Shown: positions 6,107 through 56,433, numbered from the stretch's first letter. The stretch is DNA of 64,000 nucleotides from Sulfurovum sp. (GCA_027049035.1 JALTVI010000093.1:52197-116196); one strand, 5' to 3'. Notes: a model not told the origin generated them from the letters alone. A program made the numbers and translations.

Positions 6107-6187
6107 TACCTCCGCTTTTTTACATTTAACTTTAGTTTACCTCACTCAAGTATACTCCAGGTAATTAATACTATTCAGGAGTTTCAC

Positions 6188-7135: not shown

Positions 7136-7151
7136 TCTTCAGGGAAGATCA

Positions 7152-7273
7152 AATGAGGAATGAAAAATTAGGAATGAGGAATAAAGGTATGCTTTTTTGC
7201 AAAAAGCTTTTATTGAATAGAAGCGTTGCACAGCAACGCAAACCTACACTATTCACTATTCACTATTCACCAT
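7152..7273 (+). repeat. Intercistronic heptamer-array element, copy A (moxR / DUF58 spacer)
   Basis: From left to right it contains:
- a left array of (GGAATGA)-type 7-mers
- hairpin GCTTTTT-TGC-AAAAAGC followed by TTTTATTG
- hairpin GCGTTGC-ACA-GCAACGC
- a right array of (CTATTCA) x3. Confidence 0.8.
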
Positions 7274-7301
7274 TAACTAACCTCCAAACGGAGGTGTCCT
7301 G

Positions 7302-8132
7302 ATGAATAAAGTAGCCAAAAAGATTGTCCTTAAGACCAGAAAACAAGTCTATGGGGATATGCTGGGCAACAACGCTTCGCTCTTCCAGGGTGAGGGGTTC
7401 GAGTTTGCCGAGCTGCGTGAGTATGTTTACGGAGACGATGTCCGAAAGATCGACTGGAAGACCACGGCGAAGCTTGGCAAGCCCTTTGTCAAAGTTTACA
7501 AGGAAGAGCGTGAGCTTAATGTCGTTGTGGTGACGATGCTGAGCGGTTCGATGTATTTTGGTACCGTCAAGCAGAAGAGTGACATCGCTGCCGAGGTGGT
7601 GGGTACCATCGGGTTTTCGGCAGTCAAGAATGCTGATCTCTTTTCGCATATGCTCTTTGCAGACAGAATGTATGATTTGAGCAAACCCAACAAAAAGCTC
7701 TTCTCCGTGCACAAAGCCGTTGAAGAGGTGACCGAGTTCGACCCTCTGGGGAAGCCTGCCGATTTCAAGGCGCTGGTCGAGACGCTCAATACACGGCTGA
7801 AGAAGAAGGCACTGCTCTTTATCATCTCCGATTTTGTCGGCGAGATAGACCTCAAGCTGCTTAGCAAAAAACACGATGTCTTTGCCGTGATGATCCGTGA
7901 CAAATTCGAAGAGGACCCCAGCGAGCTTGGCTACCTGCGTCTGATTGATATGGAGACCAAACAGAGTTTCGAGGGCAATATCGACAGCGGTACACTGAAA
8001 AGCTATAAAAAGGCACTGCTGAAAAACGATGAGACGCTATACAGACAGTTCAAGAAGCAGGGGATCCGTTTTGTGAAGATTTATACGCATGAAGATGCGG
8101 CGGTGAAGCTGATGAAAGGAATGAGGGGTTAG
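7302..8132 (+). CDS. DUF58 domain protein (MoxR-associated)
   Basis: Carries the motif LREYVYGDDVRKIDWK, typical of DUF58 proteins that follow MoxR. Confidence 0.85.
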   Translation: MNKVAKKIVLKTRKQVYGDMLGNNASLFQGEGFEFAELREYVYGDDVRKIDWKTTAKLGKPFVKVYKEERELNVVVVTMLSGSMYFGTVKQKSDIAAEVVGTIGFSAVKNADLFSHMLFADRMYDLSKPNKKLFSVHKAVEEVTEFDPLGKPADFKALVETLNTRLKKKALLFIISDFVGEIDLKLLSKKHDVFAVMIRDKFEEDPSELGYLRLIDMETKQSFEGNIDSGTLKSYKKALLKNDETLYRQFKKQGIRFVKIYTHEDAAVKLMKGMRG

Positions 8133-8203
8133 TGAAGAGTGAAGAGAGAAGAGTGAATAGTGTCGGTATGCTTTGCGGTGCAAAGCTTTTATTGAAAGAA
8201 GAG
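8116..8203 (+). repeat. Intercistronic heptamer-array element, copy C
   Basis: The sequence GGAATGAGG overlaps the last codons of the DUF58 gene. After the TAG stop comes a (GTGAAGA)n array, then hairpin GCTTTGC-GGT-GCAAAGC plus TTTTATTG. The element ends with GAAGAGG immediately before the downstream ATG. Confidence 0.75.
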
Positions 8204-8213
8204 GAGTATTTGT

Positions 8214-8621
8214 ATGAATGAGCAGAATTTGACGGCGCAGTTGAAAGATATCAAGCCGCTGGTTGAGATTCCCGACAGCAGTTTTTATATCTACTGGGGG
8301 TTGATAGGCTTTGCAGTGCTGCTGGGGCTGGGCATCCTCTTTTTTGTCGCCAAGAGGCTCTGGGAGAACCGCAAGAAGAATCTTGCCAAAGAGTATCTTG
8401 CCGCACTCAAGTCCATAGACTGGAGCAACAGCAAGAAGGCTGCCTACGAGGCGACACACTATGCAAGGCTTCTGGCGACAGACGAGAGACGCAAAGAGCT
8501 CTTCAGCCAGCTTGAGCCGATGTTGGAGAAGTACAAATACAAAAAAGTGGTCGACAAAGTCGATGACGATACATTAAGACAATACAAACTTTTTGTGCAG
8601 GTGGCAGATGAGTCAATTTAG
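8214..8621 (+). CDS. Small single-TM membrane protein of the Bat operon (DUF4381-like position)
   Basis: One hydrophobic helix (FYIYWGLIGFAVLLGLGILFFV). It occupies the conserved slot between the DUF58 and BatA genes. Confidence 0.5.
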   Translation: MNEQNLTAQLKDIKPLVEIPDSSFYIYWGLIGFAVLLGLGILFFVAKRLWENRKKNLAKEYLAALKSIDWSNSKKAAYEATHYARLLATDERRKELFSQLEPMLEKYKYKKVVDKVDDDTLRQYKLFVQVADESI

Positions 8622-9525
8622 TTTTGAATACCCGTTAGCGTTTCTGGTCATACTTCTCTTTATGACCTGTGCGAAGTGGTGTAAAGAGAGAAGCCGTGCA
8701 ATTTTCTTCCCCCATGTTGCGACACTGATCGCGTCGGAGGGGCGAAAGAGCACATGGCTGAATATCCTCAAGTGGGTTGGCATCGTCGCGGCGGTGACGG
8801 CACTGGCATCGCCGGTGATCACCAAGAGTTACTCCAACTCCAAAAAGGAGGGGCGTGACATCGTTCTGGTCATCGACAGTTCCGATTCGATGCGCCAGCA
8901 GGGGTTCGACCCCAACGACATCTTTAAGAACAAGTTCGATGTCGTCAAAGAGGTGGTCGAAGACTTCATTAAAAAGCGAAAGGATGACCGCATAGGGCTG
9001 GTCACCTTTGCTGATGTAGCATTCATCGCCTCACCGCTGACGTTCGAGAAGGATTTTCTGACCAATATTACACGCATGCAGAAGCTGGGTATCGCAGGAA
9101 AGCGTACAGCGATCAATGACGCGCTGGTACAGGCATACAACCTGCTTGACAAGAGCAAGGCCAAAAGCAAGATTGTCATTCTGCTCACCGACGGTATCGA
9201 CAATATGAGCAAGGTGCCTTTCCAGGATGTCAAGAGTATGATCGAAAAGCGCAAGGTCAAACTTTATGCTATCGGTATCGGCGGATCGAGAGATTACGAT
9301 GCAGCCTACCTGACGGCACTGGCCAAAGCCGGGCATGGCGAAGCGTTCGGTGCGCGTGACGCGACAGCGCTCGAGCGTGTCTATGACGAGATCGACAAGA
9401 TGGAGGCAAGCAAGCTGAACAACAAAAAGGTGGTCGAACACACCTACCTCTTTATCTACCCGCTCTTTTTGGCGGTACTTAGTCTGCTGCTGTTCATCTA
9501 TTTTAGAAACCAGAGAGGAATATAG
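8608..9525 (+). CDS. batA: VWA-domain membrane protein, BatA-like
   Basis: N- and C-terminal TM helices flank a VWA domain with the MIDAS motif DSSDSM. The ATG at 8608 is preferred over the upstream TTG at 8593. Confidence 0.8.
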   Translation: MSQFSFEYPLAFLVILLFMTCAKWCKERSRAIFFPHVATLIASEGRKSTWLNILKWVGIVAAVTALASPVITKSYSNSKKEGRDIVLVIDSSDSMRQQGFDPNDIFKNKFDVVKEVVEDFIKKRKDDRIGLVTFADVAFIASPLTFEKDFLTNITRMQKLGIAGKRTAINDALVQAYNLLDKSKAKSKIVILLTDGIDNMSKVPFQDVKSMIEKRKVKLYAIGIGGSRDYDAAYLTALAKAGHGEAFGARDATALERVYDEIDKMEASKLNNKKVVEHTYLFIYPLFLAVLSLLLFIYFRNQRGI

Positions 9526-9652
9526 AATGAGGAATGAGGAATTAGGAATGAGGAGTGGAGGTATGCTTTTTTGCAAAAAGCTTTTATTGAATAGAAGCGT
9601 TGCGCAGCAACGCAAACCACAACTATTCACTATTCACTATTCACTATTCACT
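9525..9652 (+). repeat. Intercistronic heptamer-array element, copy B (near-identical core to copy A)
   Basis: It starts at the batA stop codon. A (GGAATGA)n array is followed by the same two hairpins as copy A, with 1-3 nt differences. The right array is (CTATTCA) x4. Confidence 0.85.
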
Positions 9653-9675
9653 CCCGACAGAAGGGAGGTACACTG

Positions 9676-10683
9676 ATGGAGTTCGCATACCCCTACCTCT
9701 TCTGGGTGATGATCGTGCCGTTCGTGCTCTTTGCCGTGCTGGTTTCGACCAACAAAGAGCGGCTTTCGCGCATTTTTGATGCGAAGGTGCTCGAGCGGCT
9801 CAGTGCCGGGGATGAGAGTATGCCCCAGCGGCTGCGGAACATCATCCTCTTTTCGGCGATCTTCTTTATGATCGTCGCGATGGCGCGTCCGGTGGTCGAT
9901 GAGGGTGAGAAGAGTGTCGATGTGCAGGGTCTGACCGTACTGACGGCGCTGGATATTTCCGGTTCGATGCGCAGCAAAGATGTCTACCCCAACCGTCTGG
10001 AGTTTGCCAAGAAGAAGATGATGGCGTTTTTCGACGATATGCCAAGCGATGAGGTGGGTGTGGCAGCCTTTGCCTACTCGTCGTTCATCCTGGCACCCTT
10101 TACCAGCGACAAAGAGACGCTGAAAATGCTGGTAGAAGGGGTCGATGACTCCTACATCAGTATGGGGTCGACCGACTTCAGTGCGCTTGGAGAGCTTGCG
10201 GCAAACGTGCTCAAGGAGAAAAAGCCTAAGATCCTTGTTCTTTTCACCGACGGTGGTGATGAAGAGGCGATCACAGGCTTTTCGGACATTCTGAAAGCCA
10301 ACAACATAGACCTCTATGTGGTGCTGGTGGGAACCAAAAAGGGCGCACCTGTTCTGGATGAGAACGGCAAGCCGATGCTGCTCAAAGACGGCAGCATTGC
10401 CATTACACAGCGTAACGACGCCCTCGGACTGCTTGCGAAAGAGAATGGGGGTGCCTACGTCATTGCAGGAAACGGAAAGGATGACATGAAAAAACTGGCA
10501 GACCTGATTCACGCAAAGTACAAGATGCAGTCACAGGGTAAAGTGCAGATCAGACAGCGTACGGAGTATTTCTACTACCCGCTGGCATTCGGGCTTATGC
10601 TGCTGCTGATCGGGCTGAGTTCTTTCCCGCGTTTTGGTAACGGAAGCAGACCGCGTGCAGCGGCTAAAGGAGGTGTGCAATGA
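9676..10683 (+). CDS. batB: VWA-domain membrane protein, BatB-like
   Basis: TM helices plus a VWA domain with the MIDAS motif DISGSM. It overlaps the next gene by 4 nt. Confidence 0.8.
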   Translation: MEFAYPYLFWVMIVPFVLFAVLVSTNKERLSRIFDAKVLERLSAGDESMPQRLRNIILFSAIFFMIVAMARPVVDEGEKSVDVQGLTVLTALDISGSMRSKDVYPNRLEFAKKKMMAFFDDMPSDEVGVAAFAYSSFILAPFTSDKETLKMLVEGVDDSYISMGSTDFSALGELAANVLKEKKPKILVLFTDGGDEEAITGFSDILKANNIDLYVVLVGTKKGAPVLDENGKPMLLKDGSIAITQRNDALGLLAKENGGAYVIAGNGKDDMKKLADLIHAKYKMQSQGKVQIRQRTEYFYYPLAFGLMLLLIGLSSFPRFGNGSRPRAAAKGGVQ

Positions 10684-11567
10684 TGTGGCCCAAAAAGATG
10701 GTACTGCTCTTGCTTCTTTCCGCTACGGCGGCATTTGCAGGCCTGACCGATTTCAAGACCATCAAAGAGGCCAAAGAGGCGTACCATGCCAAAGAGTACA
10801 CCAAGAGTGCCGCACTCTTCAACTCGCTTGAAAAGGAGGCGCCGCAAAAGGCGTACGACCTTGGCAATGCCTACTACAAGTCCAAAAACTACGATGCCGC
10901 ACTCAAGGAGTATGAGAAGGCAAAGGGTGAAGGGGTAGATGAGGCGCAGCGTCTGCACAATGTCGGAAACGTTCACTTTATGAAAAACGAGCTCGACAAG
11001 GCGATAGAGGCGTATGAAAAGGCGCTGAAGATACGAGAGGACAAAGATACGCGTTTCAACCTGGAGCTTGCCAAGCGCAAAAAGAAGCAGCAGGAACAGA
11101 AGAAGAAACAGCAGAAAAAACAGAATAAGCAGAACAAAGACCAAAAGAAAAACGACAAAAACAAAGATCAGAAGAAGAACGACCAGAACAAAAAGAACGA
11201 TAAACAGAACAAAGACCAGAAAAAGAACGACAAAAGCAAGCAAAACGAGAACAAGAACGGCCAGAAGAAGAAAGACGACAACAAAAAAGGCCAGGACAAG
11301 AAGAAGCAGGATCAGAAAAAGAAAGATCAGCAGAAAAAGGGTGACAAGTCCAAAGGGGATTCGCAAAAAGAGAAGAAGCCTCAGAACAAAAAGGGCAGTG
11401 AAGCTTCCGGTCAGCCCAAAAAGCAGAAGATGAGCAAAGAAGAGAAGCTCAAGCAGGCGGAGATGAAGCGTCTGCTCAAGAAGATGGGACAGAAGAAGAC
11501 GCCGACGATGATGTATCAGATGAGCGGCGGAAAACCCAAAGAGCGTAAGGATATTAGACCGTGGTAG
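10680..11567 (+). CDS. batC: TPR-repeat protein, BatC-like, with a long K/N/Q/D-rich low-complexity tail
   Basis: Signal-like N-terminus, then TPR-like repeats (AYDLGNAYYKSKNYDAALKEYEKA and similar). These are followed by about 150 aa of KDQKKND-type repeats. Confidence 0.7.
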   Translation: MMWPKKMVLLLLLSATAAFAGLTDFKTIKEAKEAYHAKEYTKSAALFNSLEKEAPQKAYDLGNAYYKSKNYDAALKEYEKAKGEGVDEAQRLHNVGNVHFMKNELDKAIEAYEKALKIREDKDTRFNLELAKRKKKQQEQKKKQQKKQNKQNKDQKKNDKNKDQKKNDQNKKNDKQNKDQKKNDKSKQNENKNGQKKKDDNKKGQDKKKQDQKKKDQQKKGDKSKGDSQKEKKPQNKKGSEASGQPKKQKMSKEEKLKQAEMKRLLKKMGQKKTPTMMYQMSGGKPKERKDIRPW

Positions 11568-11582
11568 CGCGACGATATATCT

Positions 11583-11676
11583 ATGAGGGTTTGAACCGGT
11601 CACTCCTGCAGGTGCAAACGGCGAAGCCGCCCTGCGGGTTGGGTGCACCTTTGTCGCAACCGGCCCAAACCCTCAT
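11583..11676 (+). repeat. Structured TIR element, short copy (batC / batD spacer)
   Basis: The terminal inverted repeat is ATGAGGGTTTG..CCGG / CCGG..CAAACCCTCAT. The conserved core is GCAGGTGCAAA ... CGCCCTGCGGGTTGGGTGCACCTTTGTCG. Confidence 0.7.
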
Positions 11677-11696
11677 AAACAATAGCAACAGTAAAA

Positions 11697-13235
11697 ATGA
11701 ATAAGGAATGGACAATGAAAAAATTATGGATGATATCGGCACTCTTTTATCTGATGGCAATACATTTTCTCTATGCCGACAGTGCCGAAGCGGTGCTTTC
11801 GCAAAATGAAGTGGTGAAGGGCAATATGGCGCAGCTGCGTCTGATTGCTGAAGGGAATCGGCCGGAGTTTCCACGCATCGACAAAATCGGTGATGTGCCC
11901 GTGCTTGGCCGAAGCCGTACGCAGAACACGTCGCTGCAGGTAATCAACGGCAAGAGCAGCCTGACACATACGACCAGCCTCATACTGACGTTTGAGCCGA
12001 CAAAAGATATGATGATTCCCTCTTTTGATATCAAGATTGACGGTAAAACCTACAAAACGAAGCCGTTGAAACTGAAAGTGATCAAATCCTCCGCACCGCA
12101 AGGGGCAAGTAGCGGTATGTTCTCTTTGACGATGAAGGCGAACAAAACGGAAGTAATGGTGGGTGAGCCGCTTGTAGTTACTGTCTACTTCTCACTGCGA
12201 AATGATGTGCGTCTTTCGGAGAATCCGCAGTACAACCGGCCAGAGTTTAAGGGCTTCTTTGTCAAAGAGGTCGATGACGAGAAGCGCTATGTCAAAGGCA
12301 ACTACCATATTACCGAGCTGCGCTACATTCTTGTCCCGCAAAAGCCGGGTGAGTATCACATCGAGCCGGCAACGGCGAAAATTGGTCTGGCAGATACGAG
12401 CAGACGCGATATCTTCGGACGATTCTTTGGTACGATATGGAAACCTGTAAGCTCCAACGGCCTTACCGTTAAAGTCGATCCCGCACCACAGGATGCTGAT
12501 CTTATAGGACATTTCTATGTAGAGAGTAGTATAGACAAGACAAAGACCAAGGCAAACAAGCCTGTCAATCTGACTGTGATCATCGAGGGGGACGGCTCCC
12601 TTGAAGACTATGAGATGCCAAACTACGACATTGACGGAGTGACGGTCTACAGTGATGATGCAGAAGTAAAAACGGAAGTGATCGGCGATAAGCTCAAAAG
12701 TACCTATGTCAAGAAGTTCGCCTTCATCGCGGACCACAGTTTCGAGATTCCGGCACGCACGATCACAGCGTACGATCCGAAGACAAAAGAGACAAAAACG
12801 CTTGAGATCCCGGGTTACAGCATCGAGGTGGAGGTACCCAAAAGTGCACCCAACATGCCTGCCCAGACACCGGGCAGCTCTGCTGCAAGCGGCACACTGC
12901 ATACGGACCTGAAGCTGCCGCAGCAGGCAGAAGGTATTGCTGCCCAAGGGACAGCTTCCAAAAAAGTGGTAAGTGTACCTTCCTGGTGGCTGCTGGTTTT
13001 GGCATTCCTTGGCGGTATGGTGACGATGTATCTGCTTGGCAAACTTCAGTGGAAGAGAGCTCCCCGTCTCTTCAAAGAGTCCGAAGCGCTGAAGATCCTC
13101 TACGCCCATATGAGCGAGGATCCGCAGGTGGAGGCGATGGTACGTAAACTCTATGCGAAGAAAAATGGGCAAAAAGATGTTATCATTGACAAAAAAGAGC
13201 TCAGGGAGCTGGTGGAACGCTATACGAAAAAGTAG
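11697..13235 (+). CDS. batD: BatD-like (oxygen-tolerance family) protein
   Basis: Signal peptide (possible start at 11715, MKKLWMISALF), a large extracytoplasmic region and one C-terminal TM (WWLLVLAFLGGMVTMYLLG). It is the last gene of the Bat operon. Confidence 0.7.
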   Translation: MNKEWTMKKLWMISALFYLMAIHFLYADSAEAVLSQNEVVKGNMAQLRLIAEGNRPEFPRIDKIGDVPVLGRSRTQNTSLQVINGKSSLTHTTSLILTFEPTKDMMIPSFDIKIDGKTYKTKPLKLKVIKSSAPQGASSGMFSLTMKANKTEVMVGEPLVVTVYFSLRNDVRLSENPQYNRPEFKGFFVKEVDDEKRYVKGNYHITELRYILVPQKPGEYHIEPATAKIGLADTSRRDIFGRFFGTIWKPVSSNGLTVKVDPAPQDADLIGHFYVESSIDKTKTKANKPVNLTVIIEGDGSLEDYEMPNYDIDGVTVYSDDAEVKTEVIGDKLKSTYVKKFAFIADHSFEIPARTITAYDPKTKETKTLEIPGYSIEVEVPKSAPNMPAQTPGSSAASGTLHTDLKLPQQAEGIAAQGTASKKVVSVPSWWLLVLAFLGGMVTMYLLGKLQWKRAPRLFKESEALKILYAHMSEDPQVEAMVRKLYAKKNGQKDVIIDKKELRELVERYTKK

Positions 13236-42132: not shown

Positions 42133-42209
42133 GTCAAGGTAGCTCAGCTGGTTAGAGCGCTGGTCTCATAAGCCGGAGGTCGAGGGTTCAAGTCCCTCTC
42201 TTGACACCA
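42133..42209 (+). tRNA. tRNA with CAU anticodon (elongator Met or lysidine-type Ile2, not resolved). Serves as the integration target of the island.
   Basis: A hand-folded cloverleaf shows these parts:
- acceptor GTCAAGG / TCTTGAC
- D arm TAGCTCAGCTGGTTAGAGC
- anticodon loop CTCATAA
- T arm GAGGG-TTCAAGT-CCCTC
- encoded CCA. Confidence 0.85.
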
Positions 42210-42210
42210 C
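42184..42210 (+). repeat. attL-type direct repeat (3' part of the tRNA)
   Basis: Identical 27-mer to the one at 55081-55107. Confidence 0.85.
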
Positions 42211-42239: not shown

Positions 42240-43298
42240 CTATCCAATTTTTAAGTCTGCCAAAACTCTGCCAATTTTTGACATATCCGGTTTGATTTTT
42301 CCGGTGTAGTGCTCACGGTTTACCCCGTCATCTACATGACCCAACTGATCCAAGATCCAATCGTTTGGCATACCGTACTGCTTGAGTAGGGTATTGCATG
42401 ATCTTCGCAATGTTTGAAGCGTACCCTCTTTGATATGGCACTGTTTGCATAGTCTCTTGATCGATTCACTGATGTTGCTTGGTTTGACATAGGGCACACC
42501 CGTATGTGTGACAAAGACAAAATCATTTTTCAAACCGGTCAAACGCTGCTGCATCTTGAGTGCCTGCTTCGCCTGTGGCAGCATATCGATGATTCGGACA
42601 CGCTTGGACTTTGTAACATCCTCGATCCCCTCTCTAATACGTGTATCGACGGTAATCGTTTGGGCATTCCAGTCTATATCGTGCCATCGCAGTGCAATGA
42701 GTTCAGATCCTCTCAAGCCTGTAAAGAGCGTAAAGAGCAAAATATTTTTGAGTTGCCCGGAAGCATTCTCAATGAGCACTTTCATCTCTGATTGGTTAAA
42801 GATCTGTACTTCTCTGTATTGCTTTTTGGGTACCTTAACGAACTTGAGCGGATTTTTGTGGATGAGCTCATCACACAAAGCCATCTCTAAAATAGCATTC
42901 ATCGTTGCCCTGTAGTTCTTGATGGTCTTAGGCGCAAAGCCGCAATCATTTTGCCATTTGACAATATGGCTTGCCTTGATCTGCGTAAGATCCATATTGC
43001 CAAAGGTTTTGCAAAGCGTGTTGAAACGCTGGATCTCCTCTTTTTGTGAAAAGGTGTTTCGGTTGTTTTTGGTGATCTCGATGACCATCTCCCCATACTC
43101 TCTAAAAGTAATGAGCTCTTGGGTTACTTTGCCGAATTTCTTCTCATAGAGTTCCATAAATGCACTGTCTGCATGTTTTTGGTACCACTTGAGCAGTCTG
43201 TTGTCTGCTTTCTTGCCGGTGGTAAGTCTATGACGCTTACCGTTTACGGTATCGTCAAGGATGATAATGTTAAACTTATTAACGGTTACTCTTGCCAA
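42240..43298 (-). CDS. int: Tyrosine-type site-specific integrase
   Basis: 352 aa with a SAM-like N-terminal domain. Catalytic-domain motifs are GLRGSELIALRWHDID and a C-terminal LGH...REHY. It is adjacent to the tRNA. Confidence 0.9.
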   Translation of the reverse strand: MARVTVNKFNIIILDDTVNGKRHRLTTGKKADNRLLKWYQKHADSAFMELYEKKFGKVTQELITFREYGEMVIEITKNNRNTFSQKEEIQRFNTLCKTFGNMDLTQIKASHIVKWQNDCGFAPKTIKNYRATMNAILEMALCDELIHKNPLKFVKVPKKQYREVQIFNQSEMKVLIENASGQLKNILLFTLFTGLRGSELIALRWHDIDWNAQTITVDTRIREGIEDVTKSKRVRIIDMLPQAKQALKMQQRLTGLKNDFVFVTHTGVPYVKPSNISESIKRLCKQCHIKEGTLQTLRRSCNTLLKQYGMPNDWILDQLGHVDDGVNREHYTGKIKPDMSKIGRVLADLKIG

Positions 43299-45772: not shown

Positions 45773-45900
45773 GTGAGATGATCTAACGAAAGGGAAATAG
45801 AATTACCCAATGGGAAATTTGGTTTCCTTTTTTGTCTGTTTTGGTGAGTTGATCTAACGAAAAGGGTAATTTTATTTCCAGATTGGAAATTTGATTACCT
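45773..45900. repeat. Two imperfect direct repeats of about 55 bp (iteron-like), upstream of the rep-like operon
   Basis: The repeats are GTGAGATGATCTAACGAAAGGGAAATAGAATTACCCAATGGGAAATTTGGTTTCC (45773-45827) and GTGAGTTGATCTAACGAAAAGGGTAATTTTATTTCCAGATTGGAAATTTGATTACC (45845-45900). Confidence 0.6.
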
Positions 45901-46015: not shown

Positions 46016-46948
46016 CTATGAATTGCCAATTTCTTTTATTAAATTGTAAACATGTATCTTCCCAATACCGGTTGAGCGTTTTTTACTTTTTACTGGAAAA
46101 TCATATAATGCGCCATAATTAGCATCTTCTCTACTATCTTCATTATTAACTAAAAAAACTGCACATCCAATTGCGTTGGGCTTTGTACCTATTGGAGCAA
46201 CTCTAAAACTTTTTCCTGTTTGAGCTATTTTTTCAAGTAGTTTCAAACTTTGATATGGATTATTTGCTGAGACATATTTTATTTCGGAAAAAGAATACCT
46301 AGGATCAAAAAATTTTAAATGGTTATTTATTGTTCTATTTTCCCAACCTGGTGAAAATCCTGGTAATGGAACAATAGGAATAAAGTTTTCGTAAATGACT
46401 TCCTCGGTTGAAAATATTTGACCTAACCTTTGTTTTTCAAAACCTAAGAAAACAACCAGTTCTACTTTTTCAAGTTCAGTATTTATTGTGAATCCTGGCA
46501 AAGGTGGAAATGGTTGGAGTTTATCGGATAAAGAGAATTCATCATGTGTTGTAATTGAACTGTTAAGAAACTGATACTCTGATGGTTCAACATACAGAAT
46601 TTGAATATTTTGTATAGTTTCCATTTTATTTGAGTCACTAAGAATATAAAGAATTTCTGCAAAACTCAATGTAGTTGCATCAATTATTATAGATGAATAT
46701 TTATATTTTTCCAGTAGTTCTTCCGTTAACTCATTTTTTTTGAATTTTTTTTCTTTGTCTTGAAAAGAAAAGTCCATTTCATCATATTTTAGATAAACTT
46801 TGTTTTTTATCTCTTGTTGATCAAAAAGGGATTCAACAAACCTTCCTCTATCGTCCAAAGCATAGTCTCCATGATACGCAACATAGTCGGTCTCAAATGA
46901 AACTTCATCTGGATTGTTATATGTTTCAATATTTTTAAATTTCCACAT
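46016..46948 (-). CDS. Hypothetical 310-aa protein, fourth gene of the AT-rich cassette
   Basis: The ATG at 46948 overlaps the upstream stop (TAATG). Possible Rossmann-like strand motifs are IIIDATTLS and VAPIGTKPNAIG. I recognise no family. Confidence 0.6.
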   Translation of the reverse strand: MWKFKNIETYNNPDEVSFETDYVAYHGDYALDDRGRFVESLFDQQEIKNKVYLKYDEMDFSFQDKEKKFKKNELTEELLEKYKYSSIIIDATTLSFAEILYILSDSNKMETIQNIQILYVEPSEYQFLNSSITTHDEFSLSDKLQPFPPLPGFTINTELEKVELVVFLGFEKQRLGQIFSTEEVIYENFIPIVPLPGFSPGWENRTINNHLKFFDPRYSFSEIKYVSANNPYQSLKLLEKIAQTGKSFRVAPIGTKPNAIGCAVFLVNNEDSREDANYGALYDFPVKSKKRSTGIGKIHVYNLIKEIGNS

Positions 46949-48945
46949 TAATAGTTTTCTCCAAACAAACCTAAGTCTCCCGCATCTTCTATTTTCCATT
47001 CTTTAACAAATTTCTTGTATAACTTGTCAAATTCTGCATCACTACTTAAAAAAAGAATTTTGATTTCTTCTGGACTAAAAACTATTTTATGTATCTTTCT
47101 CATACTAATCTTATAATAGGGAGCGAGAATAGGAGTTAACATAAATTCTTTTGTTACAATACTATCACTTGAGTCTTTTGTTGTTTCATCAAATTCTTGC
47201 AGTACATTCCAAAGCTTTGCTTCGTATAATAATGTATTAACCTTTTCATCAAGCGATTCTAATGCGTGTGTTTCAACAGAAAAATGTATATTCTCTGGTT
47301 TACTTTGAGTTTTTATTTTTTGCTTTAATGAGAAAACAATTCCTAGTCTATTTGCTATTTTTTGTAAGTCTTTACCGTAAGATCCCAGTTCCGAAATTGT
47401 ATCAAGCTCTTGTCTACTACAAAATTTAGCTGCTTTTGCTTGGAGTTCAATATTTACCTTTGGTATTTCTGCTTTTGCTTGAGTTGAGTTTTCAAACTCT
47501 ACAAATGATTGATAACATAATTCAAGTAAATGGCGTAAATTATTTCTGGACATTAAACAAAATCTCTCAAATCCTGCATATATTGGACATATTCTTTGAG
47601 GGAATGATATATAAATATATAATATTGAACCAACTAAAGTATTGGATATTTGTTCTTTATATGCTGATACAGCTTTAGATTTTACTCCTTTTTTGTATTC
47701 TTGAAATAATCTATATAATTCATCGGGTAATATACGAGACCTAAATAAAAGAGTTGCATTTACAACTGATGCATCAGGAAATTCTTCATCATAGAAATAT
47801 GAAGCTGGAAAATCACTACCTTTCGTTTTTAATGCAAGTTGTATATTTTTAATTAGCTTGTTCTTTAATGTTTTATCTGACATTATTAAATTAGCAATCT
47901 CTCTATAACTTAACGATGGAAATAACTCATTAGCAAATAAAATTATTCTATTTTTATACTCAGTTGATTTTCTATCTATAAGTTCCTTTTCTACTGATAT
48001 TCTATTTCTATCAATAATTTTATTTTCAGGGAAAAACTCTTGAATTTTCGATGCTATAATCTCAGCAGAGAGTAATTTGAAATCATCATCCGTTTTCGCA
48101 TATACATCATCAATTAAATCTATTATTCGATGATCATTTCTTCTTTGAGTATGTTCACTGCTTGTCGTTTCATCAGTTATATGAGCATGTTTTTTATATG
48201 CAATACTAAATATAAGAGGAGATTCTCCATGTTTCATCCATGTATTTATAATTTTTTGATGCTCTTCCCTTAAATTTTCAAATTCATCAATAAAAATATG
48301 AAAAGTTGTATCCTTAAAAAAATTATTATCTTTCCATATTTGGATTATATATTCTATTGTTGCTTTACCATCTAAATAAAAGTAAAAGTCATCTTTTGGA
48401 TTATGAAGCCAATTTTGCAACTTAAATAATAATCCTCTTATTTTTGTCCTCAATTCTACTAAACGAATTTCTTGATCAATTTTTAATTCTTCAGTAAAGT
48501 CTTTTGGTATCATAAAATCTTTTAATTTATTTTTCATGCTTATATCATCATAGTTTGACTCCAAGAATACATCAATAAGTTCTGAAAACTTCATTAATAG
48601 TGATAAGGCTACATATGTATTAAATACCGCATCCCATTTATTATCTAGATAAGACTCATTAATCAATTGAACAAAATGTGTATCTGGCTTCCAATATATA
48701 CCAATAGTATCAATATCATTTTTTACTAATTTAAGCCTTTTATTACTCAATTGCGTGTGATATGCATGATATTTAAGATACATTGTTTTTCCGGTACCTC
48801 TTCCACCAATAACTTTTACACCTTTAGTTTCATGTAATAAATTAAATTGAGCATAGTTTAATGGAAGAACATATTTTCCCCATAAATCATCAGGAAATTC
48901 TTCAGCTCTATTTTTCTTAAATATTTGAGATAGTCTTTGTTGCAT
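46948..48945 (-). CDS. 665-aa P-loop NTPase (AAA/ORC-Cdc6-like or STAND-like), third gene of the cassette
   Basis: Walker A motif VIGGRGTGKT and Walker B motif FHIFIDEFE. The large helical C-terminal region has no recognisable motif. Confidence 0.75.
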   Translation of the reverse strand: MQQRLSQIFKKNRAEEFPDDLWGKYVLPLNYAQFNLLHETKGVKVIGGRGTGKTMYLKYHAYHTQLSNKRLKLVKNDIDTIGIYWKPDTHFVQLINESYLDNKWDAVFNTYVALSLLMKFSELIDVFLESNYDDISMKNKLKDFMIPKDFTEELKIDQEIRLVELRTKIRGLLFKLQNWLHNPKDDFYFYLDGKATIEYIIQIWKDNNFFKDTTFHIFIDEFENLREEHQKIINTWMKHGESPLIFSIAYKKHAHITDETTSSEHTQRRNDHRIIDLIDDVYAKTDDDFKLLSAEIIASKIQEFFPENKIIDRNRISVEKELIDRKSTEYKNRIILFANELFPSLSYREIANLIMSDKTLKNKLIKNIQLALKTKGSDFPASYFYDEEFPDASVVNATLLFRSRILPDELYRLFQEYKKGVKSKAVSAYKEQISNTLVGSILYIYISFPQRICPIYAGFERFCLMSRNNLRHLLELCYQSFVEFENSTQAKAEIPKVNIELQAKAAKFCSRQELDTISELGSYGKDLQKIANRLGIVFSLKQKIKTQSKPENIHFSVETHALESLDEKVNTLLYEAKLWNVLQEFDETTKDSSDSIVTKEFMLTPILAPYYKISMRKIHKIVFSPEEIKILFLSSDAEFDKLYKKFVKEWKIEDAGDLGLFGENY

Positions 48946-48954
48946 TTTTTTCCT

Positions 48955-49860
48955 TTATCTTGGCACGAGATGATTCCAGGATTCGTCTGTATACCAAAGT
49001 ATTGGCAGTGTATTATTTGGAGTTGAAACTGAAAATAGATATGTTAAAGCGAGGTCACCTCTACCATACAATTCATTAGTTAATTTTGTTTTTTTATGTA
49101 TTAAGTCAATATACATAGCTTCAAGTTTTTCGAGATCAATACTTTCCACAATTTTTGGCATAAATTCCTTATTAAAAAAATTATATCGTTCATCTAGTAT
49201 TTCAACTGGGATTATTCTAACAGTGGGATATTTTTCATAGTTAAATGATTCTAAAGCGGTTTTAGTTGCCGATAGAGGGCAATAAAGTAAGATGAGCCCT
49301 TTAGTATCAGCATAAAATTTTTCTAAATATGTATTAAATTGTTCACCTGTTCCCATTATATCATCAAAAAGAACAACAATTTTACACAAAGATCTATCTA
49401 TCTCTGATAACTCTTCTGCTGAAACTTTTAATCTATTATGAAAACTTCCATGTCTTGCAAATTCTCTTAGAATTGTGCTACCACTTTTTCCTGTTTCTCT
49501 ATCTACATTTTCAACGGTAGAAAATCTTAAAGGTAATCCTGATCCTTTTACTAAGTTATTATGAAATTGATCAAGCGATGCAATTTCTAAAATTTCTAAC
49601 TTGTTTAGTTCTGTTGGTAAAATAATATCAACTATATATTGATACATAGAGAGCATAGATACATTATTCCTATATATTAGCCTATAAATAATAAGTGCTG
49701 ATAAAAATTTTTCATGATCTGTCTCAAAATTTCTTAACCATAATAAAAAGTCTTCTTCTTGTATGTCCCAAAAGTTGATTTTAATATATTTAATAGCACT
49801 TTCTTTCATATCGTCATAAAATTCTTTCCATTCTGAAGGCAGCTCAAACATCAATTTCAC
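48955..49860 (-). CDS. Phosphoribosyltransferase-like domain protein, second gene of the cassette
   Basis: The segment KIVVLFDDIMGTGEQF matches the PRPP-binding loop pattern of type I PRTases (hydrophobic strand, DD, then TG). The N-terminal 170 aa or so are unassigned. Confidence 0.6.
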   Translation of the reverse strand: MKLMFELPSEWKEFYDDMKESAIKYIKINFWDIQEEDFLLWLRNFETDHEKFLSALIIYRLIYRNNVSMLSMYQYIVDIILPTELNKLEILEIASLDQFHNNLVKGSGLPLRFSTVENVDRETGKSGSTILREFARHGSFHNRLKVSAEELSEIDRSLCKIVVLFDDIMGTGEQFNTYLEKFYADTKGLILLYCPLSATKTALESFNYEKYPTVRIIPVEILDERYNFFNKEFMPKIVESIDLEKLEAMYIDLIHKKTKLTNELYGRGDLALTYLFSVSTPNNTLPILWYTDESWNHLVPR

Positions 49861-51031
49861 CTTTTATATAAATTGGAAAGTTTTCCACATCACTAAGAGT
49901 GATATGCTTTGCCGCAACGCCTTTAGCACAAGCATGAATCATTTTCTGCCCTTCTTCTGAGGACAAAAATCTAAAGATGATACTTCTAAAATCCATCTTT
50001 GCTCTAATAATAATCACACAATCTGTAGGTACAAAATATCCTTTTTCAACTATACTTATTTTTCCAATAACAGAGGTGCCTACACGAGCTAAGACTATAT
50101 CTCCAGCTCGTGCAATTTTTGTAGAATATTTTGTTAATTTTGATGAAGACTGTAGACTATTCGACACTGTATCCTTTTTTAATGAAGTTGTATGAAGAAT
50201 ATGTCGATTAGGAACTTCATTTAGCATATATTTAGATTTTCCTCTAAATATTTCTGCAACATCTTTCAGCTTTTTAGCTTTCTTGGGAAGAATTTGATTA
50301 TTGATATAATTAAATGAGAAATCTGATCTCGTGATAGCTTCATCCGTACTTATTTTTATTTTCTTCCCATCGAGGTTGGAAAGTATAATATTATAGTTTT
50401 GATTTTGAAAACTTTTTTTCAAAATCATAATATGAGTTTTCGCTGGAGTGTTCTTAAATATATTACTTGGTAGCTCAACTATTTTTTCAATATGATAGTT
50501 GAAAAATAAAAATTTCCTAAAATATGCCAATGACTCGTTAGTGAAAAATCCATCTGGCAATATGAGTGCCAGTGTTCCATTGTCTTTTAATATTTTCAGG
50601 TTTTGAAGTATAAATGGAATTTCTGAAGGGATGTATTTCCCTTTATTATATTTTTGCAAATCAAATTCAGCCAAAAGTCTATCGATATCCTTATCTTTTT
50701 TGATTTTGTGAAATGGTGGGTTTCCCAAACATAGATCCACTTTTCCAGTGATACTAGATATTTTATTTATCGTATTATATTTAAGTACATCAAAATTTGT
50801 ACAATGTAGATTAGGGCATAAAGTTGTTATTTTTTTGCAACAATACAAATCAATATCGTTACCATAATAATGAGATAGATCCCAACGCTTTTTTGCTTCA
50901 ATCAAAAGTGCCCCTTCTCCAATTGCAAGATCAATTATTTTTTCTGGAGAAGAAATGTTTAATTCATTAATCAAAATTTGACTATATTTGGCAGGTGTAA
51001 AAAATTGTTTAAATGTCGCTGCCATTGTCAT
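49844..51031 (-). CDS. Gamma-class N6-adenine DNA methyltransferase with a fused target-recognition domain, first gene of the cassette
   Basis: Motif X is QFFTP, motif I is IIDLAIGEGALL and motif IV is NPPF. The C-terminal half resembles a single HsdS-type TRD (ARAGDIVLARVGTSVIGKISIV). Confidence 0.85.
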   Translation of the reverse strand: MTMAATFKQFFTPAKYSQILINELNISSPEKIIDLAIGEGALLIEAKKRWDLSHYYGNDIDLYCCKKITTLCPNLHCTNFDVLKYNTINKISSITGKVDLCLGNPPFHKIKKDKDIDRLLAEFDLQKYNKGKYIPSEIPFILQNLKILKDNGTLALILPDGFFTNESLAYFRKFLFFNYHIEKIVELPSNIFKNTPAKTHIMILKKSFQNQNYNIILSNLDGKKIKISTDEAITRSDFSFNYINNQILPKKAKKLKDVAEIFRGKSKYMLNEVPNRHILHTTSLKKDTVSNSLQSSSKLTKYSTKIARAGDIVLARVGTSVIGKISIVEKGYFVPTDCVIIIRAKMDFRSIIFRFLSSEEGQKMIHACAKGVAAKHITLSDVENFPIYIKGEIDV

Positions 51032-51821: not shown

Positions 51822-52094
51822 CTATACGATCTCTTGAGACTTTTGCCATTGCTCCTCTGCAAGATCCATCCAGGGCTTGGCTGCATCTTTCATCTTTTGT
51901 GTAGCTACTTGGTAGTCGATAGCCTCAAGATCCTTTCGTTTGACCTCATTTAGCCATACCTGGACAAAGTTATCCTCTGCATCTTTAAATTGTGCTGCAT
52001 CGATGCCCTGTTGTGTCTCAAGTTGAGTAAGTGCTGCCATAGCTGTGCTATACATTTCTCTGAGTACATCATATTCCATTGGTGTCGCCATCAT
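51822..52094 (-). CDS. Hypothetical 90-aa helical protein
   Basis: Its start overlaps the stop of the upstream RHH gene (ATGA-type coupling). Confidence 0.45.
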   Translation of the reverse strand: MMATPMEYDVLREMYSTAMAALTQLETQQGIDAAQFKDAEDNFVQVWLNEVKRKDLEAIDYQVATQKMKDAAKPWMDLAEEQWQKSQEIV

Positions 52095-52495
52095 TGCTCC
52101 TTGTGTTGAAATTGATCCAAAAGCAAACTGATTGTTTGTGAAAGATTCAGCTCCAAAGCCTTGGCTTGGGCTGAGAGTCGCTCATGCACTTCTTTATCCA
52201 AAGTAATCTGCGTGCGTTTATGTCGGTTGCGTGATTTTCCCACCCGCATGGCTACACGAAGCTTTTTGAGTTGCTCATCACTGAGATACTCCCTGATCCA
52301 CTCGTTGAGCTGCTCAAACACCGATTCATTCACCGGCAGCATCTCATCGAAGTTCCGCAACGCTTTACGGGCTTGATCTTTGTTTGTGGCATCACGCCAA
52401 AAAGAGGGGCTTTTATCAAAGCTACGACGCAGATACGCCAGGGCGATGGTGTACTCCTCTTCGTCTCTGATACGCCATCGGTTGGATCGCTGCAT
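52091..52495 (-). CDS. Ribbon-helix-helix DNA-binding protein with MatP-like architecture
   Basis: C-terminal RHH segment (TQITLDKEVHERLSAQAKALELNLSQTISLLL), preceded by a basic stretch and a helical N-domain (NEWIREYLSDEQLKKLR). The order mirrors E. coli MatP as I remember it. Confidence 0.5.
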   Translation of the reverse strand: MQRSNRWRIRDEEEYTIALAYLRRSFDKSPSFWRDATNKDQARKALRNFDEMLPVNESVFEQLNEWIREYLSDEQLKKLRVAMRVGKSRNRHKRTQITLDKEVHERLSAQAKALELNLSQTISLLLDQFQHKEQ

Positions 52496-52698: not shown

Positions 52699-53502
52699 AT
52701 GATTGAAAAACTTAATAAACAACCCCTGTATGTAAAACTCTATATAAGTACAATAATTCTTTTAGGTTTATTAGCATTAGTTAGTGGTTTTTTTAAAAAT
52801 GTAAATTTTTTTTCAAAAATTATCGTTTATCTTTTTTTAATAAATATTTTTCTTGCTGCATCATTGCATACTTTTTATACCATAAAGCTATTATGGAATA
52901 ATAAGATACTTAAACTGCTTTTTTCAGCTTTATTGGGCTATATAGTAATATTTACCGATAGTAAAATAAGAATAAACATTTATAATATAGTTAAAGAAAA
53001 TCCAGATAACTTTACACCTGCTATTCATGCTTTAGACCTCATATATGTTTACATTTACTTTATTTTGAGTGTAATCAGTATATTGTTCATTTTAAGTATT
53101 GTTGCTCCATTGGTAGATATGGTATTTGAGAGTTTTTCAAAAAAAATAGGAGTAACTGCTAAGATATTTCCTATGTTAATTATTGCAATTTTCTTTATTT
53201 TGTTTTTCGTGTATAATGCTAAAAATATAAATACTTTCGATAAAAAAATAAAAGAAAAAACCCTTCTATTCACTTCTTATTATCCCAATAGAACATGTAA
53301 TAATCGTGATGCGTATAGGCACTATATTAGGTTAGTTGGAGTTTCTGGAAAGATATCGATATCAAATGTTACAGTTGATGAATTTTTAGTGTCAGGTCCA
53401 GTAGATTCGCTTTTTAGCATAATAAAGTTGGATAAAGATATTGAGTTTTATTCTGATTATTGTGATAAAATCGATGCTAATGTATCTTTGAACTCTTTGT
53501 AA
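52699..53502 (+). CDS. Very AT-rich multi-pass membrane protein, hypothetical
   Basis: Five or six hydrophobic helices. It lies in the second AT-rich patch of the island. Confidence 0.55.
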   Translation: MIEKLNKQPLYVKLYISTIILLGLLALVSGFFKNVNFFSKIIVYLFLINIFLAASLHTFYTIKLLWNNKILKLLFSALLGYIVIFTDSKIRINIYNIVKENPDNFTPAIHALDLIYVYIYFILSVISILFILSIVAPLVDMVFESFSKKIGVTAKIFPMLIIAIFFILFFVYNAKNINTFDKKIKEKTLLFTSYYPNRTCNNRDAYRHYIRLVGVSGKISISNVTVDEFLVSGPVDSLFSIIKLDKDIEFYSDYCDKIDANVSLNSL

Positions 53503-53946: not shown

Positions 53947-54435
53947 ATGAACCAGCAGCAAATGCATAAACTTCTCGGTGTGCCTGAACGAACCCTAAGA
54001 GATTGGAAAAACGGTAAAAGAGAAAAACTCTACCGGCTTTTGGAGAGTTTGGATTTTGAGGCTGCTCAGAAACTGTTACAGATGAATGATGCCCAAGATC
54101 TAAAAAGACTCCTTGAAAATGAACGTTACTACACGTCATTACGTGAGTTTGAAAGAGATCTCTACAGCGTGTTGGTTTCCGGTAGAGATGTGAATGTATG
54201 GCGTAAATTGGCAGGCGATACCGCACTCTCCAAAGAGGCGAGGGCAAGAGCTGCATACCTCTATAGCTTTATGACCGATAAAATGGTAAAGCTCTCTTTT
54301 CAAAAAGAGCTTGATACGGGATTGTACCACAGCAATCGCAACAGTAATGGTGATGGCTTGGCAAGGCTTTACGGGCTTAAAAACGGTATCGATATGCAGC
54401 GGTTTAACCAATATAAAATGACAGGCAGATTCTAA
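53947..54435 (+). CDS. HTH-domain protein (putative antitoxin or regulator paired with the downstream nucleotidyltransferase)
   Basis: N-terminal HTH-like segment (QMHKLLGVPERTLRDWKNGK). Its stop overlaps the next start (TAATG). Confidence 0.55.
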   Translation: MNQQQMHKLLGVPERTLRDWKNGKREKLYRLLESLDFEAAQKLLQMNDAQDLKRLLENERYYTSLREFERDLYSVLVSGRDVNVWRKLAGDTALSKEARARAAYLYSFMTDKMVKLSFQKELDTGLYHSNRNSNGDGLARLYGLKNGIDMQRFNQYKMTGRF

Positions 54436-54980
54436 TGGTACCTCATAGTTTTAAAGAGGCGATCATCGAGATGATGAAACAGATCGCCAAAGAGATACCC
54501 GATAGCCATAAAAAAGTGCCGGTCAAAGCCTATTTGACCGGTGGTGGTGCGGTGCACTACTATTGTAACAGCAGAGTATCCGATGATATCGATCTGATCA
54601 TGCAGTTTTCTGTCAAGATCCCTGAGAATCTTTTCGTTGTATGGATGAATGATGAGGGGATGTTGGAGCAGGTACATTATGATCATACTTACAACAGTAC
54701 TTTTGGATTGCTTCATGAAGACTATGAAGATCGGGCAGTGCATATGGTGACAATCGATGACAAGTTTGAGATATATTTGCTTTCACCGGAAGATCTTATT
54801 ATCTCTAAACTGATTCGTTTTGCACAGAATGATGAAGAGGATATCCGAAATATCATCGCTACAGGCAGAGTTGATAAAGATCTTTTATATGAATTGGCGA
54901 CAGATGCCATCAGTGTAGGTGTAGGATTTCAAAAGAAGTTTGTAGAGACCAATTTGGCGCAAGTGATGGAGATGTTTTGA
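54435..54980 (+). CDS. Minimal nucleotidyltransferase-fold protein (DUF6036 / AbiEii-like)
   Basis: Motif LTGGGAVHYYCNSRVSDDIDLIM, which fits GG-x-A...R-x-S/T-x-DID. Confidence 0.6.
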   Translation: MVPHSFKEAIIEMMKQIAKEIPDSHKKVPVKAYLTGGGAVHYYCNSRVSDDIDLIMQFSVKIPENLFVVWMNDEGMLEQVHYDHTYNSTFGLLHEDYEDRAVHMVTIDDKFEIYLLSPEDLIISKLIRFAQNDEEDIRNIIATGRVDKDLLYELATDAISVGVGFQKKFVETNLAQVMEMF

Positions 54981-55080
54981 GTTTGGCAGACTCTGCCAAA
55001 AAAGTCAGTTTTTAGTGTGCCAACAGCCGACTACTTTTAGTATAAAGCCCGAAAATGCGGCTATATGGGGATTTGTCGTA

Positions 55081-55107
55081 GGGTTCAAGTCCCTCTCTTG
55101 ACACCAC
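55081..55107 (+). repeat. attR-type direct repeat (duplicated tRNA 3' end)
   Basis: Identical 27-mer to the one at 42184-42210. No complete tRNA is present here. Confidence 0.85.
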
Positions 55108-55188: not shown

Positions 55189-56433
55189 ATGATCGATCTT
55201 AAATATGTAGAGAAGAATTTTGACGAAGCGGCGGCAAGGCTGAAGAAGAAGGGTGTCGATACACAGACACTCGAGAAGCTCAAAACCCTTTTTGGACAAC
55301 TCAAAGAGGCCAATGCGGCACTTGAAGCGGCACAGGCCGAGCAGAACAGTATGTCCAAACTCTTTGGGCAGTACAAGCGCGAGGGCAAAGATATCGGTGA
55401 GCTCAAAGCGAAGGTTGATGCTAACAAGGAGCGCATCGCGCAGCTTCAGGAGAAAGCTAGAGAAGCCGAAGCGGTGCTCTATGAAGTGGCGCTTGCCATT
55501 CCGAACTTTCCAGACGACTCCGTTCCCGAAGGGGAAGATGAAGAGGACAATGTCGAGCTTCGCAAAGTACTGGAGCCAAGAGTTTTTGACTTTGAGCCGC
55601 TGGAGCATTGGGCACTGGCCGAGAAGAACGGCTGGATCGACTTCGAGCGCGGTGTGAAGCTAGCAAAAAGCCGATTTTCGGTGCTGCGTGGTGATGCTGC
55701 AAGGCTTGAAAGAGCGCTTATCAACTTCTTTCTTGACACCAATAGAGAAAAGGGGTTTGAAGAGCTCTGCGTTCCTTTTATGAACAATGCACAGATGCTG
55801 CAGGGTACCGGACAGCTGCCGAAGTTCGAAGAGGATCTCTTCAAGATCGAAGATGAAGACCTCTACCTGATTCCGACAGCCGAAGTGCCGCTGACCAATA
55901 TGTACAATGACGAAATTTTGTCTGAAGAGAAACTGCCTGTACTGATGACAGGCTATACCCCATGCTTTAGAAAAGAGGCAGGAAGTGCAGGCCGTGACAC
56001 CCGCGGGATAATCCGTCAGCACCAGTTCGATAAGGTCGAGATGGTCGCTATTGCCCATCCTGACAAAAGCGATGAGGTGTTCGAGATGATGGTGCAGAAC
56101 GCTTCAGACATTCTCACCGCACTTGGACTGCCCCACCGCGTGGTGGAGCTGTGCGGCGGAGACCTCGGCTTTTCTGCGGCACGTACTATCGACCTTGAGG
56201 TGTGGCTGCCAGGACAGAATAAGTACCGTGAGATCAGCTCCATCTCCAACACCCGAGATTTCCAGGCAAGACGCGCCAAGATCCGCTTTAAAGATGGGAA
56301 GAAGAACAGACTGGTGCATACCCTCAACGGCTCCGCACTGGCGGTAGGGCGTACGCTGATTGCGATTATGGAGAATTATCAGAATGAGGACGGAAGTATC
56401 GAGATTCCGGAAGTGTTGAAGAAGTATATGTAA
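55189..56433 (+). CDS. serS: Seryl-tRNA synthetase
   Basis: 414 aa with an N-terminal coiled-coil arm and a class II core ([29 protein letters not shown]). Confidence 0.95.

Follow-up and report, generated by a model that had tools for sequence, protein, structure and literature searches.

Positions 46016-51031 of a 64,000-nt stretch of Sulfurovum sp. DNA (GCA_027049035.1, JALTVI010000093.1:52197-116196; the whole stretch is referred to here as the window) carry a cassette of four coupled minus-strand open reading frames (ORFs), spanning 49844-51031 (395 aa), 48955-49860 (301 aa from a GTG start), 46948-48945 (665 aa) and 46016-46999. An earlier note, made from the sequence alone, had described these as four co-directional, tightly coupled genes, and both the ORF listing and direct reading of the junctions agree: the last codons of gene 1 run into gene 2, genes 2 and 3 are separated by a 9-nt spacer with AGGA inside it, and the stop of gene 3 and the start of gene 4 share a TAATG, giving a 1-nt overlap. 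The note's 17-nt overlap between genes 1 and 2 is correct as to the overlap but not as to its length. The most likely start of gene 2 is the ATG at 49851, which is used both by the gene calls of two metagenome contigs with identical sequence and by the database entry P0325; the protein then has 298 aa and the overlap is 8 nt. Gene 4 starts at 46948 (310 aa), since the N-termini of its homologues align there. The motifs quoted in the note (QFFTP, DLAIGEGALL, NPPF, KIVVLFDDIMGTGEQF, GGRGTGKT and IFIDEFE) are all found in the translations, and its statement that the block is far more AT-rich than its surroundings is matched by a G+C content of 27.3-29.9% across 46-51 kb versus about 43-55% (~50%) for the host part of the window. 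The four genes, with phosphoribosyltransferase abbreviated PRTase and phosphoribosyl pyrophosphate PRPP, are as follows.

49844-51031, minus strand: gene 1, gamma-class N6-adenine DNA methyltransferase (residues ~1-235) with a single HsdS-like target-recognition domain (TRD; ~250-395); assigned by Pfam, PADLOC, NCBIfam and PDB
48955-49851 (alternative GTG at 49860), minus strand: gene 2, PRTase-CE, predicted PRPP-dependent effector, 298 aa; assigned by Pfam, PADLOC and conserved residues
46948-48945, minus strand: gene 3, ORC-CDC6-like AAA+ ATPase, predicted DNA-sensing switch, 665 aa; assigned by Pfam, AlphaFold2 and Foldseek
46016-46948, minus strand: gene 4, CARF6-family protein with two Rossmann-like lobes, 310 aa; assigned by PADLOC, AlphaFold2 and Foldseek

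Gene 1 matched the Pfam families N6_Mtase (3e-23) and Eco57I (8e-14) and, over its full length, the PADLOC model MTase_II (PDLC03285, 4.1e-76). Residues 253-388 matched Specificity_I of PADLOC (9.5e-9), and residues 204-390 the MAD5 S-subunit of NCBIfam (4e-8); the closest PDB relative was HsdM of EcoR124 (6.4e-12). N104-P105-P106 and G38 were unchanged in 20 orthologues. The gamma-class methyltransferase with an HsdS-like TRD that the note had recognized by motif is thus also what the profiles return. Hypervariable specificity by type I-like shuffling of the TRD was considered and rejected, because in close relatives the TRD varies in step with the other parts of the system.

Gene 2 belongs to Pfam PF24390 'PRTase-CE' (1.7e-38; cut-off 27 bits) and matched the retron PRTase_III-A models of PADLOC (7.7e-19), in keeping with the suspected relationship to retron PRTases. 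Residues D166, D167, G170, G172 and Q174 of the PRPP loop, together with S126, were invariant in 21 orthologues. Elsewhere, PF24390 fused to a winged helix-turn-helix domain (wHTH; PF24409) adjoins RVT_1 reverse transcriptases in a retron-like arrangement, and in one 522-aa protein (P0414) a sigma54-type AAA+ domain is fused to PRTase-CE. This fusion of an ATPase with a PRTase supports a putative functional coupling of the two activities. When one domain turns up repeatedly downstream of sensor modules that are unrelated to each other, it is usually an effector, and because PRTase-CE is found beside or fused to such modules (the retron reverse transcriptase and the sigma54-type AAA+ domain), we read it as a likely effector. 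PRTases are considered probable effectors of retrons (PMC9122126). The PRTase toxin ShosT is a PRPP-binding protein in which PRTase activity is coupled to that of a pyrophosphatase; it disturbs the metabolism of purines and prevents normal replication (PMC11961720, PMC12961424). Since PRTase-CE has no significant PDB match, our analogy with ShosT is one of fold and role rather than of close homology.

Gene 3 matched Pfam PF24389 'ORC-CDC6-like' (1.4e-86) but no PADLOC family at E<=1, BrxC models included, and no NCBIfam family. Its Walker A (G47, R49, G50, G52, K53 and T54) and Walker B (D220 and E221) residues were invariant in 55 homologues. Because profiles of genes 3 and 4 searched against PDB sequences returned only noise, folds were assigned with AlphaFold2 models and Foldseek. 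The gene 3 model (mean predicted local distance difference test score, pLDDT, of 90.4) matched Cdc6/ORC proteins (7tji_I, probability 0.99; 2qby_A, 0.98; 1fnn_A, 0.96), RuvBL, clamp loaders and RdrA of RADAR, and no nuclease; the TM-scores to Cdc6/Orc1 were low, and the matches to RuvBL and the clamp loaders were comparable. The model has a helical insert (residues 97-206) between strands, and the Pfam name favours placement with ORC/Cdc6. The whole-model search was dominated by the AAA+ core, leaving the helical middle and the C-terminal domain without an assignment. Clustered at 50% identity, the ATPase family comprises 734 representatives at E<=1e-3 and 136 at E<=1e-30, nearly all of ~660 aa.

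Gene 4, in which the note could name no motif, proved to be a member of the CARF superfamily. It has no Pfam family but matched PADLOC CARF6 (PDLC01920, 5.4e-54, residues 24-320 of the 327-aa ORF), a family that originates in a published CARF census. The AlphaFold2 model (pLDDT 88.6; predicted TM-score, pTM, 0.91) consists of two Rossmann-like lobes, the C-terminal one a canonical CARF domain. Foldseek matched it to the CARF domains of Csa3 (2wte, probability 1.00), Can2 (8bao, root-mean-square deviation 3.2 over 125 columns), Csm6, Card1 and Cad1, with weaker matches over the whole length to SAVED proteins. There is no fused effector domain. Fifteen positions were invariant (R34, T92, Y119, P122, Y125, G169, E171, R174, P196, G254, T255, P257, D283, P285 and R291), all at C-terminal strand ends, which in the model would correspond to the side on which such folds bind their ligands.

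Searches of the cassette for a nuclease, helicase or HsdR-like domain were negative with Pfam, PADLOC, NCBIfam and PDB profiles and, for genes 3 and 4, with AlphaFold2 and Foldseek, so that the absence of PD-(D/E)xK, HNH, helicase and HsdR-like signatures reported from motif reading holds under profile and structure searches as well. More specifically, the cassette scans revealed no endonuclease of type I, II or III restriction-modification (PD-(D/E)xK, HNH, GIY-YIG or PLD) and no HsdR/Res, nor did either appear as a conserved fifth gene. The only match to a restriction endonuclease model of PADLOC, that of gene 4 (E = 0.009), was noise.

The four genes are linked far beyond this island. A profile scan with gene 3 of one genome per species identified 23 loci, to which 79 metagenome loci and others were added; membership was defined here from neighbourhoods of Pfam PF24390 and PF24389. 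The 23 loci come from Campylobacterota, Gammaproteobacteria, Bacteroidota and relatives, Planctomycetota, Thermodesulfobacteriota, Chloroflexota and Clostridiales. One of them is a 2.2-kb Methanoperedens contig on which just the ATPase gene and a portion of the CARF gene are present. Clustering of the ORFs within 6 kb yielded exactly four conserved families, and no fifth conserved gene in these neighbourhoods. In 79 distinct complete PRTase-ATPase-CARF cores the gene order was constant, with median gaps of 3 nt and -4 nt, and a methylase of the same family lay within 2 kb of the core in 71 of the 74 loci with enough flanking sequence, and 2.9 kb away in one more. The cassette of the window displays all four defining features, namely a PF24390 protein with an intact DD loop, a PF24389 protein of ~660 aa with Walker A and B motifs encoded immediately downstream, an overlapping CARF6 gene (~310 aa) and an adjacent methylase. 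Correlation of pairwise identities with those of the ATPase gave Spearman coefficients of 0.85 for the PRTase, 0.79 for the CARF protein and 0.52 for the N-terminal domain of the methylase. The four genes are therefore co-inherited, with a translationally coupled core of fixed order. The co-occurrence in other genomes that the note had set as a check is thereby found, and a functional link between the methylase and the other three genes, which it had proposed, is supported.

The position and the class of the methylase vary around this constant core. In 35 of the 79 distinct loci it is upstream and co-directional with the core, as in the window; in 31 it is downstream and co-directional, and in 7 it occupies the opposite strand. 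Loci without the gamma-class family instead have an unrelated DNA methylase (PF01555 or the C5 family PF00145). Thus, the Clostridiales locus L025 carries a PF01555 N6/N4 methylase 12 nt upstream of the core, and loci L115 and L116, in which the gamma-class methylase is absent, carry a PF00145 C5-cytosine methylase 85 nt downstream of it. At L033, a C5 methylase and Vsr sit at the core but are possibly part of a neighbouring system. Since the methylase family is exchangeable, what the core requires would appear to be methylation of DNA in general and no specific methylase protein. This pattern is predicted by restriction-modification logic alone, with the three-gene core cast in the putative 'R' role. 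Two further observations concern the surroundings of individual cores. The gammaproteobacterial locus L010 has two methylases of the cassette type (5775-6929 and 10883-12112) flanking its core, which could provide two specificities. At L115 (6277-9683), the core is followed by genes for a HAD hydrolase, a dCTP deaminase-like protein and an HhH-GPD DNA glycosylase, which might be a nucleotide or base-repair accessory set.

The carriers examined were all mobile elements or small islets. Besides the tRNA-Met island of the window, they comprise a conjugative IncFII plasmid from Enterobacter hormaechei, a Yersinia enterocolitica prophage of lambdoid type, in which the cassette lies between the replication and Q regions, and an islet of Pectobacterium. 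In PLSDB, 147 plasmids carry the cassette, 130 of them from Klebsiella and 133 conjugative. An example is the 51-kb K. pneumoniae IncR plasmid OW968048.1 (L031; cassette at 4852-9903), whose annotation lists each of the three core genes as 'hypothetical protein' and gives the methylase the name tRNA1(Val) (adenine(37)-N6)-methyltransferase, almost certainly in error. Among 5,426 complete RefSeq genomes of E. coli the cassette is present in 4; all four copies lie on plasmids, the strains being C600 or J53, and 'conjugation assay' is the stated source in two of the records. Such mobile carriers would fit a role in defence or exclusion. That the system is phage-borne was rejected, as it was found in one IMG/VR contig only and had no true match among 50,697 phage records. 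Mom is a DNA-modification protein of phage Mu, and in the Yersinia prophage (L030, 5256-5978) a Mom-family gene (PF25680) lies ~2 kb from the cassette; it may be a second DNA-modification function of that phage.

In the window, the cassette sits inside a 12.9-kb island bounded at both ends by a perfect 28-nt direct repeat, and the tRNA-Met gene and repeats uphold the earlier description of a tRNA-integrated island. The other island genes include an integrase, a NikA-like gene, a ParA-like gene and a helix-turn-helix (HTH) rep-like gene, and the island is probably a mobilisable integrative element. Its landmarks are the following.

42183-42210, plus strand: attL, left island boundary, the 3' end of tRNA-Met (tRNA-Met at 42133-42209); first copy of the 28-nt repeat
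42240-43298: integrase of the island
55080-55107, plus strand: attR, right island boundary, where the 28-nt repeat recurs shortly before serS (55189-56433; Pfam)

Just upstream of the HTH_36 rep-like gene, a pair of 22-nt direct repeats (45773-45794 and 45844-45865; 71 nt apart, 91% identical) is iteron-like. A RHH/MatP_C-like gene (52091-52495) directly precedes a strongly hydrophobic 267-aa ORF (52699-53502) that has no Pfam family and lies in DNA of 34-35% G+C. At 53947-54980, an Xre-like HTH gene and a DUF6036 nucleotidyltransferase gene overlap start to stop; this pair looks like a toxin-antitoxin-type second accessory module of the island. A scan for promoters and terminators was uninformative in such AT-rich DNA (41 promoter-like sites versus 34 expected), and an Rfam scan found tRNA only and no further RNA family. 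The closest relatives of the window's copy are the Sulfurovum and Sulfurimonas versions (gene 4, 91% identical; gene 2, 88% identical), a kinship that fits the low G+C content and a recent transfer into a host of ~50% G+C. Neither the cassette nor the host DNA had a megablast match among E. coli genomes and plasmids, placing the window's lineage outside those collections.

Based on these findings, we consider it an evenly balanced proposition that the cassette represents a widespread mobile four-gene module that resembles restriction-modification but is free of a nuclease. In such a module, the methyltransferase would mark host and element DNA at its target sites. The ORC/Cdc6-like ATPase, complexed with the other two core proteins, would read DNA and use ATP as a switch at unmethylated sites of incoming DNA. 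PRTase-CE would then be released, and its PRPP-dependent chemistry would upset the nucleotide pool, as shown for ShosT, stopping replication of the invader and probably that of the infected cell. The CARF protein would bind a nucleotide-type ligand, most simply the product of the PRTase or a PRPP-derived metabolite, and thereby set the threshold of the response or restrain the PRTase. The note had proposed nucleotide or NAD-type chemistry; PRPP chemistry is retained here, while NAD-type chemistry found no support. The defence function and the division into sensor and effector are thus predictions from gene content and conservation. A more pointed version, that the ORC/Cdc6-like switch itself reads methylation and couples unmethylated DNA to PRPP chemistry without cutting, resulting either in nucleotide-pool collapse or in a novel messenger made from PRPP, for which the tandem-CARF protein would be the receptor, is in our judgement possible but on the doubtful side.

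Several observations weigh against this interpretation. The role of the CARF protein is its weakest step, as the ligand is only predicted and no enzyme that makes cyclic nucleotides is present. DNA binding by gene 3 is likewise a prediction, and a profile of its C-terminal domain returned only noise against PDB sequences. The profile of gene 2 reached a best E of 0.6 against PDB sequences and matched no PRTase toxin. The cases with a C5 methylase are few, and the methylase of L033 may belong to its neighbour. Finally, classical restriction-modification systems diversify their specificity, whereas the TRD of the cassette methylase is unusually conserved, with no shuffling among close relatives.

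The same components can be arranged differently. In one alternative, which we regard as unlikely, the PRTase would make a PRPP-derived messenger on sensing unmethylated DNA, the tandem-CARF protein would be its receptor, and the ATPase would be the effector, clamping or coating foreign DNA to impose a BREX-like replication block without cleavage. The PRTase is the sole nucleotide-making enzyme of the cassette and CARF and SAVED domains are dedicated nucleotide sensors; in the model, conserved CARF residues at strand ends of both lobes suggest a selected pocket. ORC/Cdc6-type ATPases also bind and remodel DNA, and BREX, in which BrxC is the scaffold, likewise has no obvious restriction nuclease of the classical type (PMC12839542). 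This arrangement is difficult to reconcile with PRTase-CE being the recurring, effector-like terminal partner of unrelated sensors (retron reverse transcriptase and sigma54-type AAA+), and with a CARF protein that has no output domain of its own. To our knowledge, moreover, no PRTase produces a second messenger. It is very unlikely, in our estimate, that the PRTase instead acts on DNA at unmethylated sites, removing a base or transferring phosphoribose onto it after delivery by the ATPase. R.PabI, a restriction glycosylase that removes bases, offers a parallel, and the genetic behaviour of the core as the 'R' partner of three methylase classes would be simplest to explain if the attack hit the methylation-protected base or site. 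Some proteins of the PRTase fold, such as ComFC, do work with DNA (PMC5512222). Yet the whole PRPP-binding loop is invariant, which points to a small-molecule substrate, and the CARF protein is left without a role. We also know of no precedent for a PRTase that acts on DNA bases.

Two further explanations concern why the genes travel together. Restriction-modification systems are known to act as addiction modules, and methylase and toxic core might stabilise plasmids, islands and prophages by acting together in post-segregational killing. The mobility of the examined carriers, the 133 conjugative plasmids among 147, and toxin-antitoxin neighbours (VapBC on the IncR plasmid, CcdA/HTH in Pectobacterium and DUF6036/Xre in the window) all speak for maintenance, but such a function is compatible with defence, classical restriction-modification doing both, and the accessory slot of a lambdoid prophage is typical of anti-phage cargo; we rate this explanation as quite unlikely. 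The least probable, in our view, is that an orphan type II methylase merely neighbours an independent abortive-infection/CARF module that answers cyclic oligoadenylates made elsewhere, for example by type III CRISPR. CARF domains usually serve type III CRISPR, the methylase is on the opposite strand in 7 loci, and its co-evolution with the core is weaker than that among the core genes. Nevertheless, chance would have to account for a methylase adjacent to the core in 71 of 74 loci of many phyla, with another DNA methylase in the exceptions. The cassette also stands alone on Klebsiella plasmids of ~50 kb, with no CRISPR genes in a 16-kb plasmid stretch, and nothing cas-like lies within the island of the window.

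If our preferred reading of a nuclease-free, restriction-modification-like module is true, methylation-based discrimination of self from non-self would be wired to a PRPP-dependent effector and a cyclase-free CARF sensor, not to a nuclease. This would be a new coupling of epigenetic self-marking to a metabolic immune response, present on conjugative plasmids of clinical Klebsiella, and it would link restriction-modification and BREX, the PRTase effectors of retrons and toxin-antitoxin systems, and CARF/SAVED sensing, which are now separate fields. The cassette is compact (5 kb) and not rare, judging by its occurrence in many bacterial phyla, the 734 ATPase clusters and the 147 plasmids. It could affect phage therapy and the movement of plasmids in a host of clinical importance.

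As to whether the system is undescribed, as the note proposed, the component families are already named (PF24390, PF24389, the NCBI 'ORC-CDC6 family AAA ATPase' and PADLOC CARF6), so that the term goes too far where the components are concerned. No system in PADLOC-DB v2.0.0 includes gene 3, since it matches no model there, and our literature search turned up no paper on the four components together. The neighbourhood may have been noted in the computational surveys of Burroughs et al. (2015, NAR; PMC4678834) and Makarova et al. (2020, NAR; PMC7498327).

Each component recalls a known system from which the cassette as a whole departs. Gene 2 shares PF24390 with the PRTase-wHTH proteins adjacent to reverse transcriptases (the 'PRTase_III-A' effectors of retrons in PADLOC), but it has no fused wHTH, and the sensor would be the ATPase, the CARF protein and methylation, not multicopy single-stranded DNA (msDNA); no RVT domain was found among the island ORFs scanned, and Rfam returned no retron RNA there. 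ShosTA and PsyrTA similarly pair a PRPP-binding PRTase toxin with a Rossmann-fold partner that binds nucleic acid or nucleotides. Their partner is DprA-like, however, and that of the cassette is of CARF fold; the cassette further contains an ATPase and a methylase, and the sequence similarity of gene 2 to any solved PRTase is insignificant. The CARF fold of gene 4 is shared with type III CRISPR, and its two-lobed build recalls the SAVED proteins of cyclic-oligonucleotide-based antiphage signalling systems (CBASS). Unlike in those systems, the cassette's sensor lacks a fused effector and is always linked to methylation, and a cyclase (Cas10 or CD-NTase) was found neither in the cassette or island nor as a conserved gene in 21 neighbourhoods.

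The likeness to BREX and BREX-related (DUF499/Hma-type) systems lies in an N6-adenine methylase combined with a large AAA+ ATPase of the ORC/Cdc6 clade, and in a core without a classical restriction endonuclease. In those systems the core consists of an ORC/Cdc6-like ATPase and an N6A methylase, the ATPase being the proposed scaffold of a DNA-scanning complex (PMC12839542). The cassette differs from BREX in lacking PglZ, BrxA/B/L and a helicase and in having a PRTase and a CARF protein as partners; gene 3 is about half the size of BrxC and matches no BrxC model, and gene 1 scored 28.9 bits against the PglX model, whose cut-off is 500. Scores for the methylation-associated defence system (MADS) likewise remained far below their cut-offs (MAD2, 54.4 versus 720 bits; MAD5, 32.5 versus 400), the PADLOC mad2 match being to part of the domain only. 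Finally, while differing from classical type II restriction-modification in that the partner of the methylase is a three-protein, predicted ATP- and PRPP-dependent module without an endonuclease fold, the cassette shares with it a stand-alone methylase that has its own recognition domain and lies beside apparently dependent genes, a variable position and orientation of that methylase, and a methylase class that can be exchanged around a constant partner.

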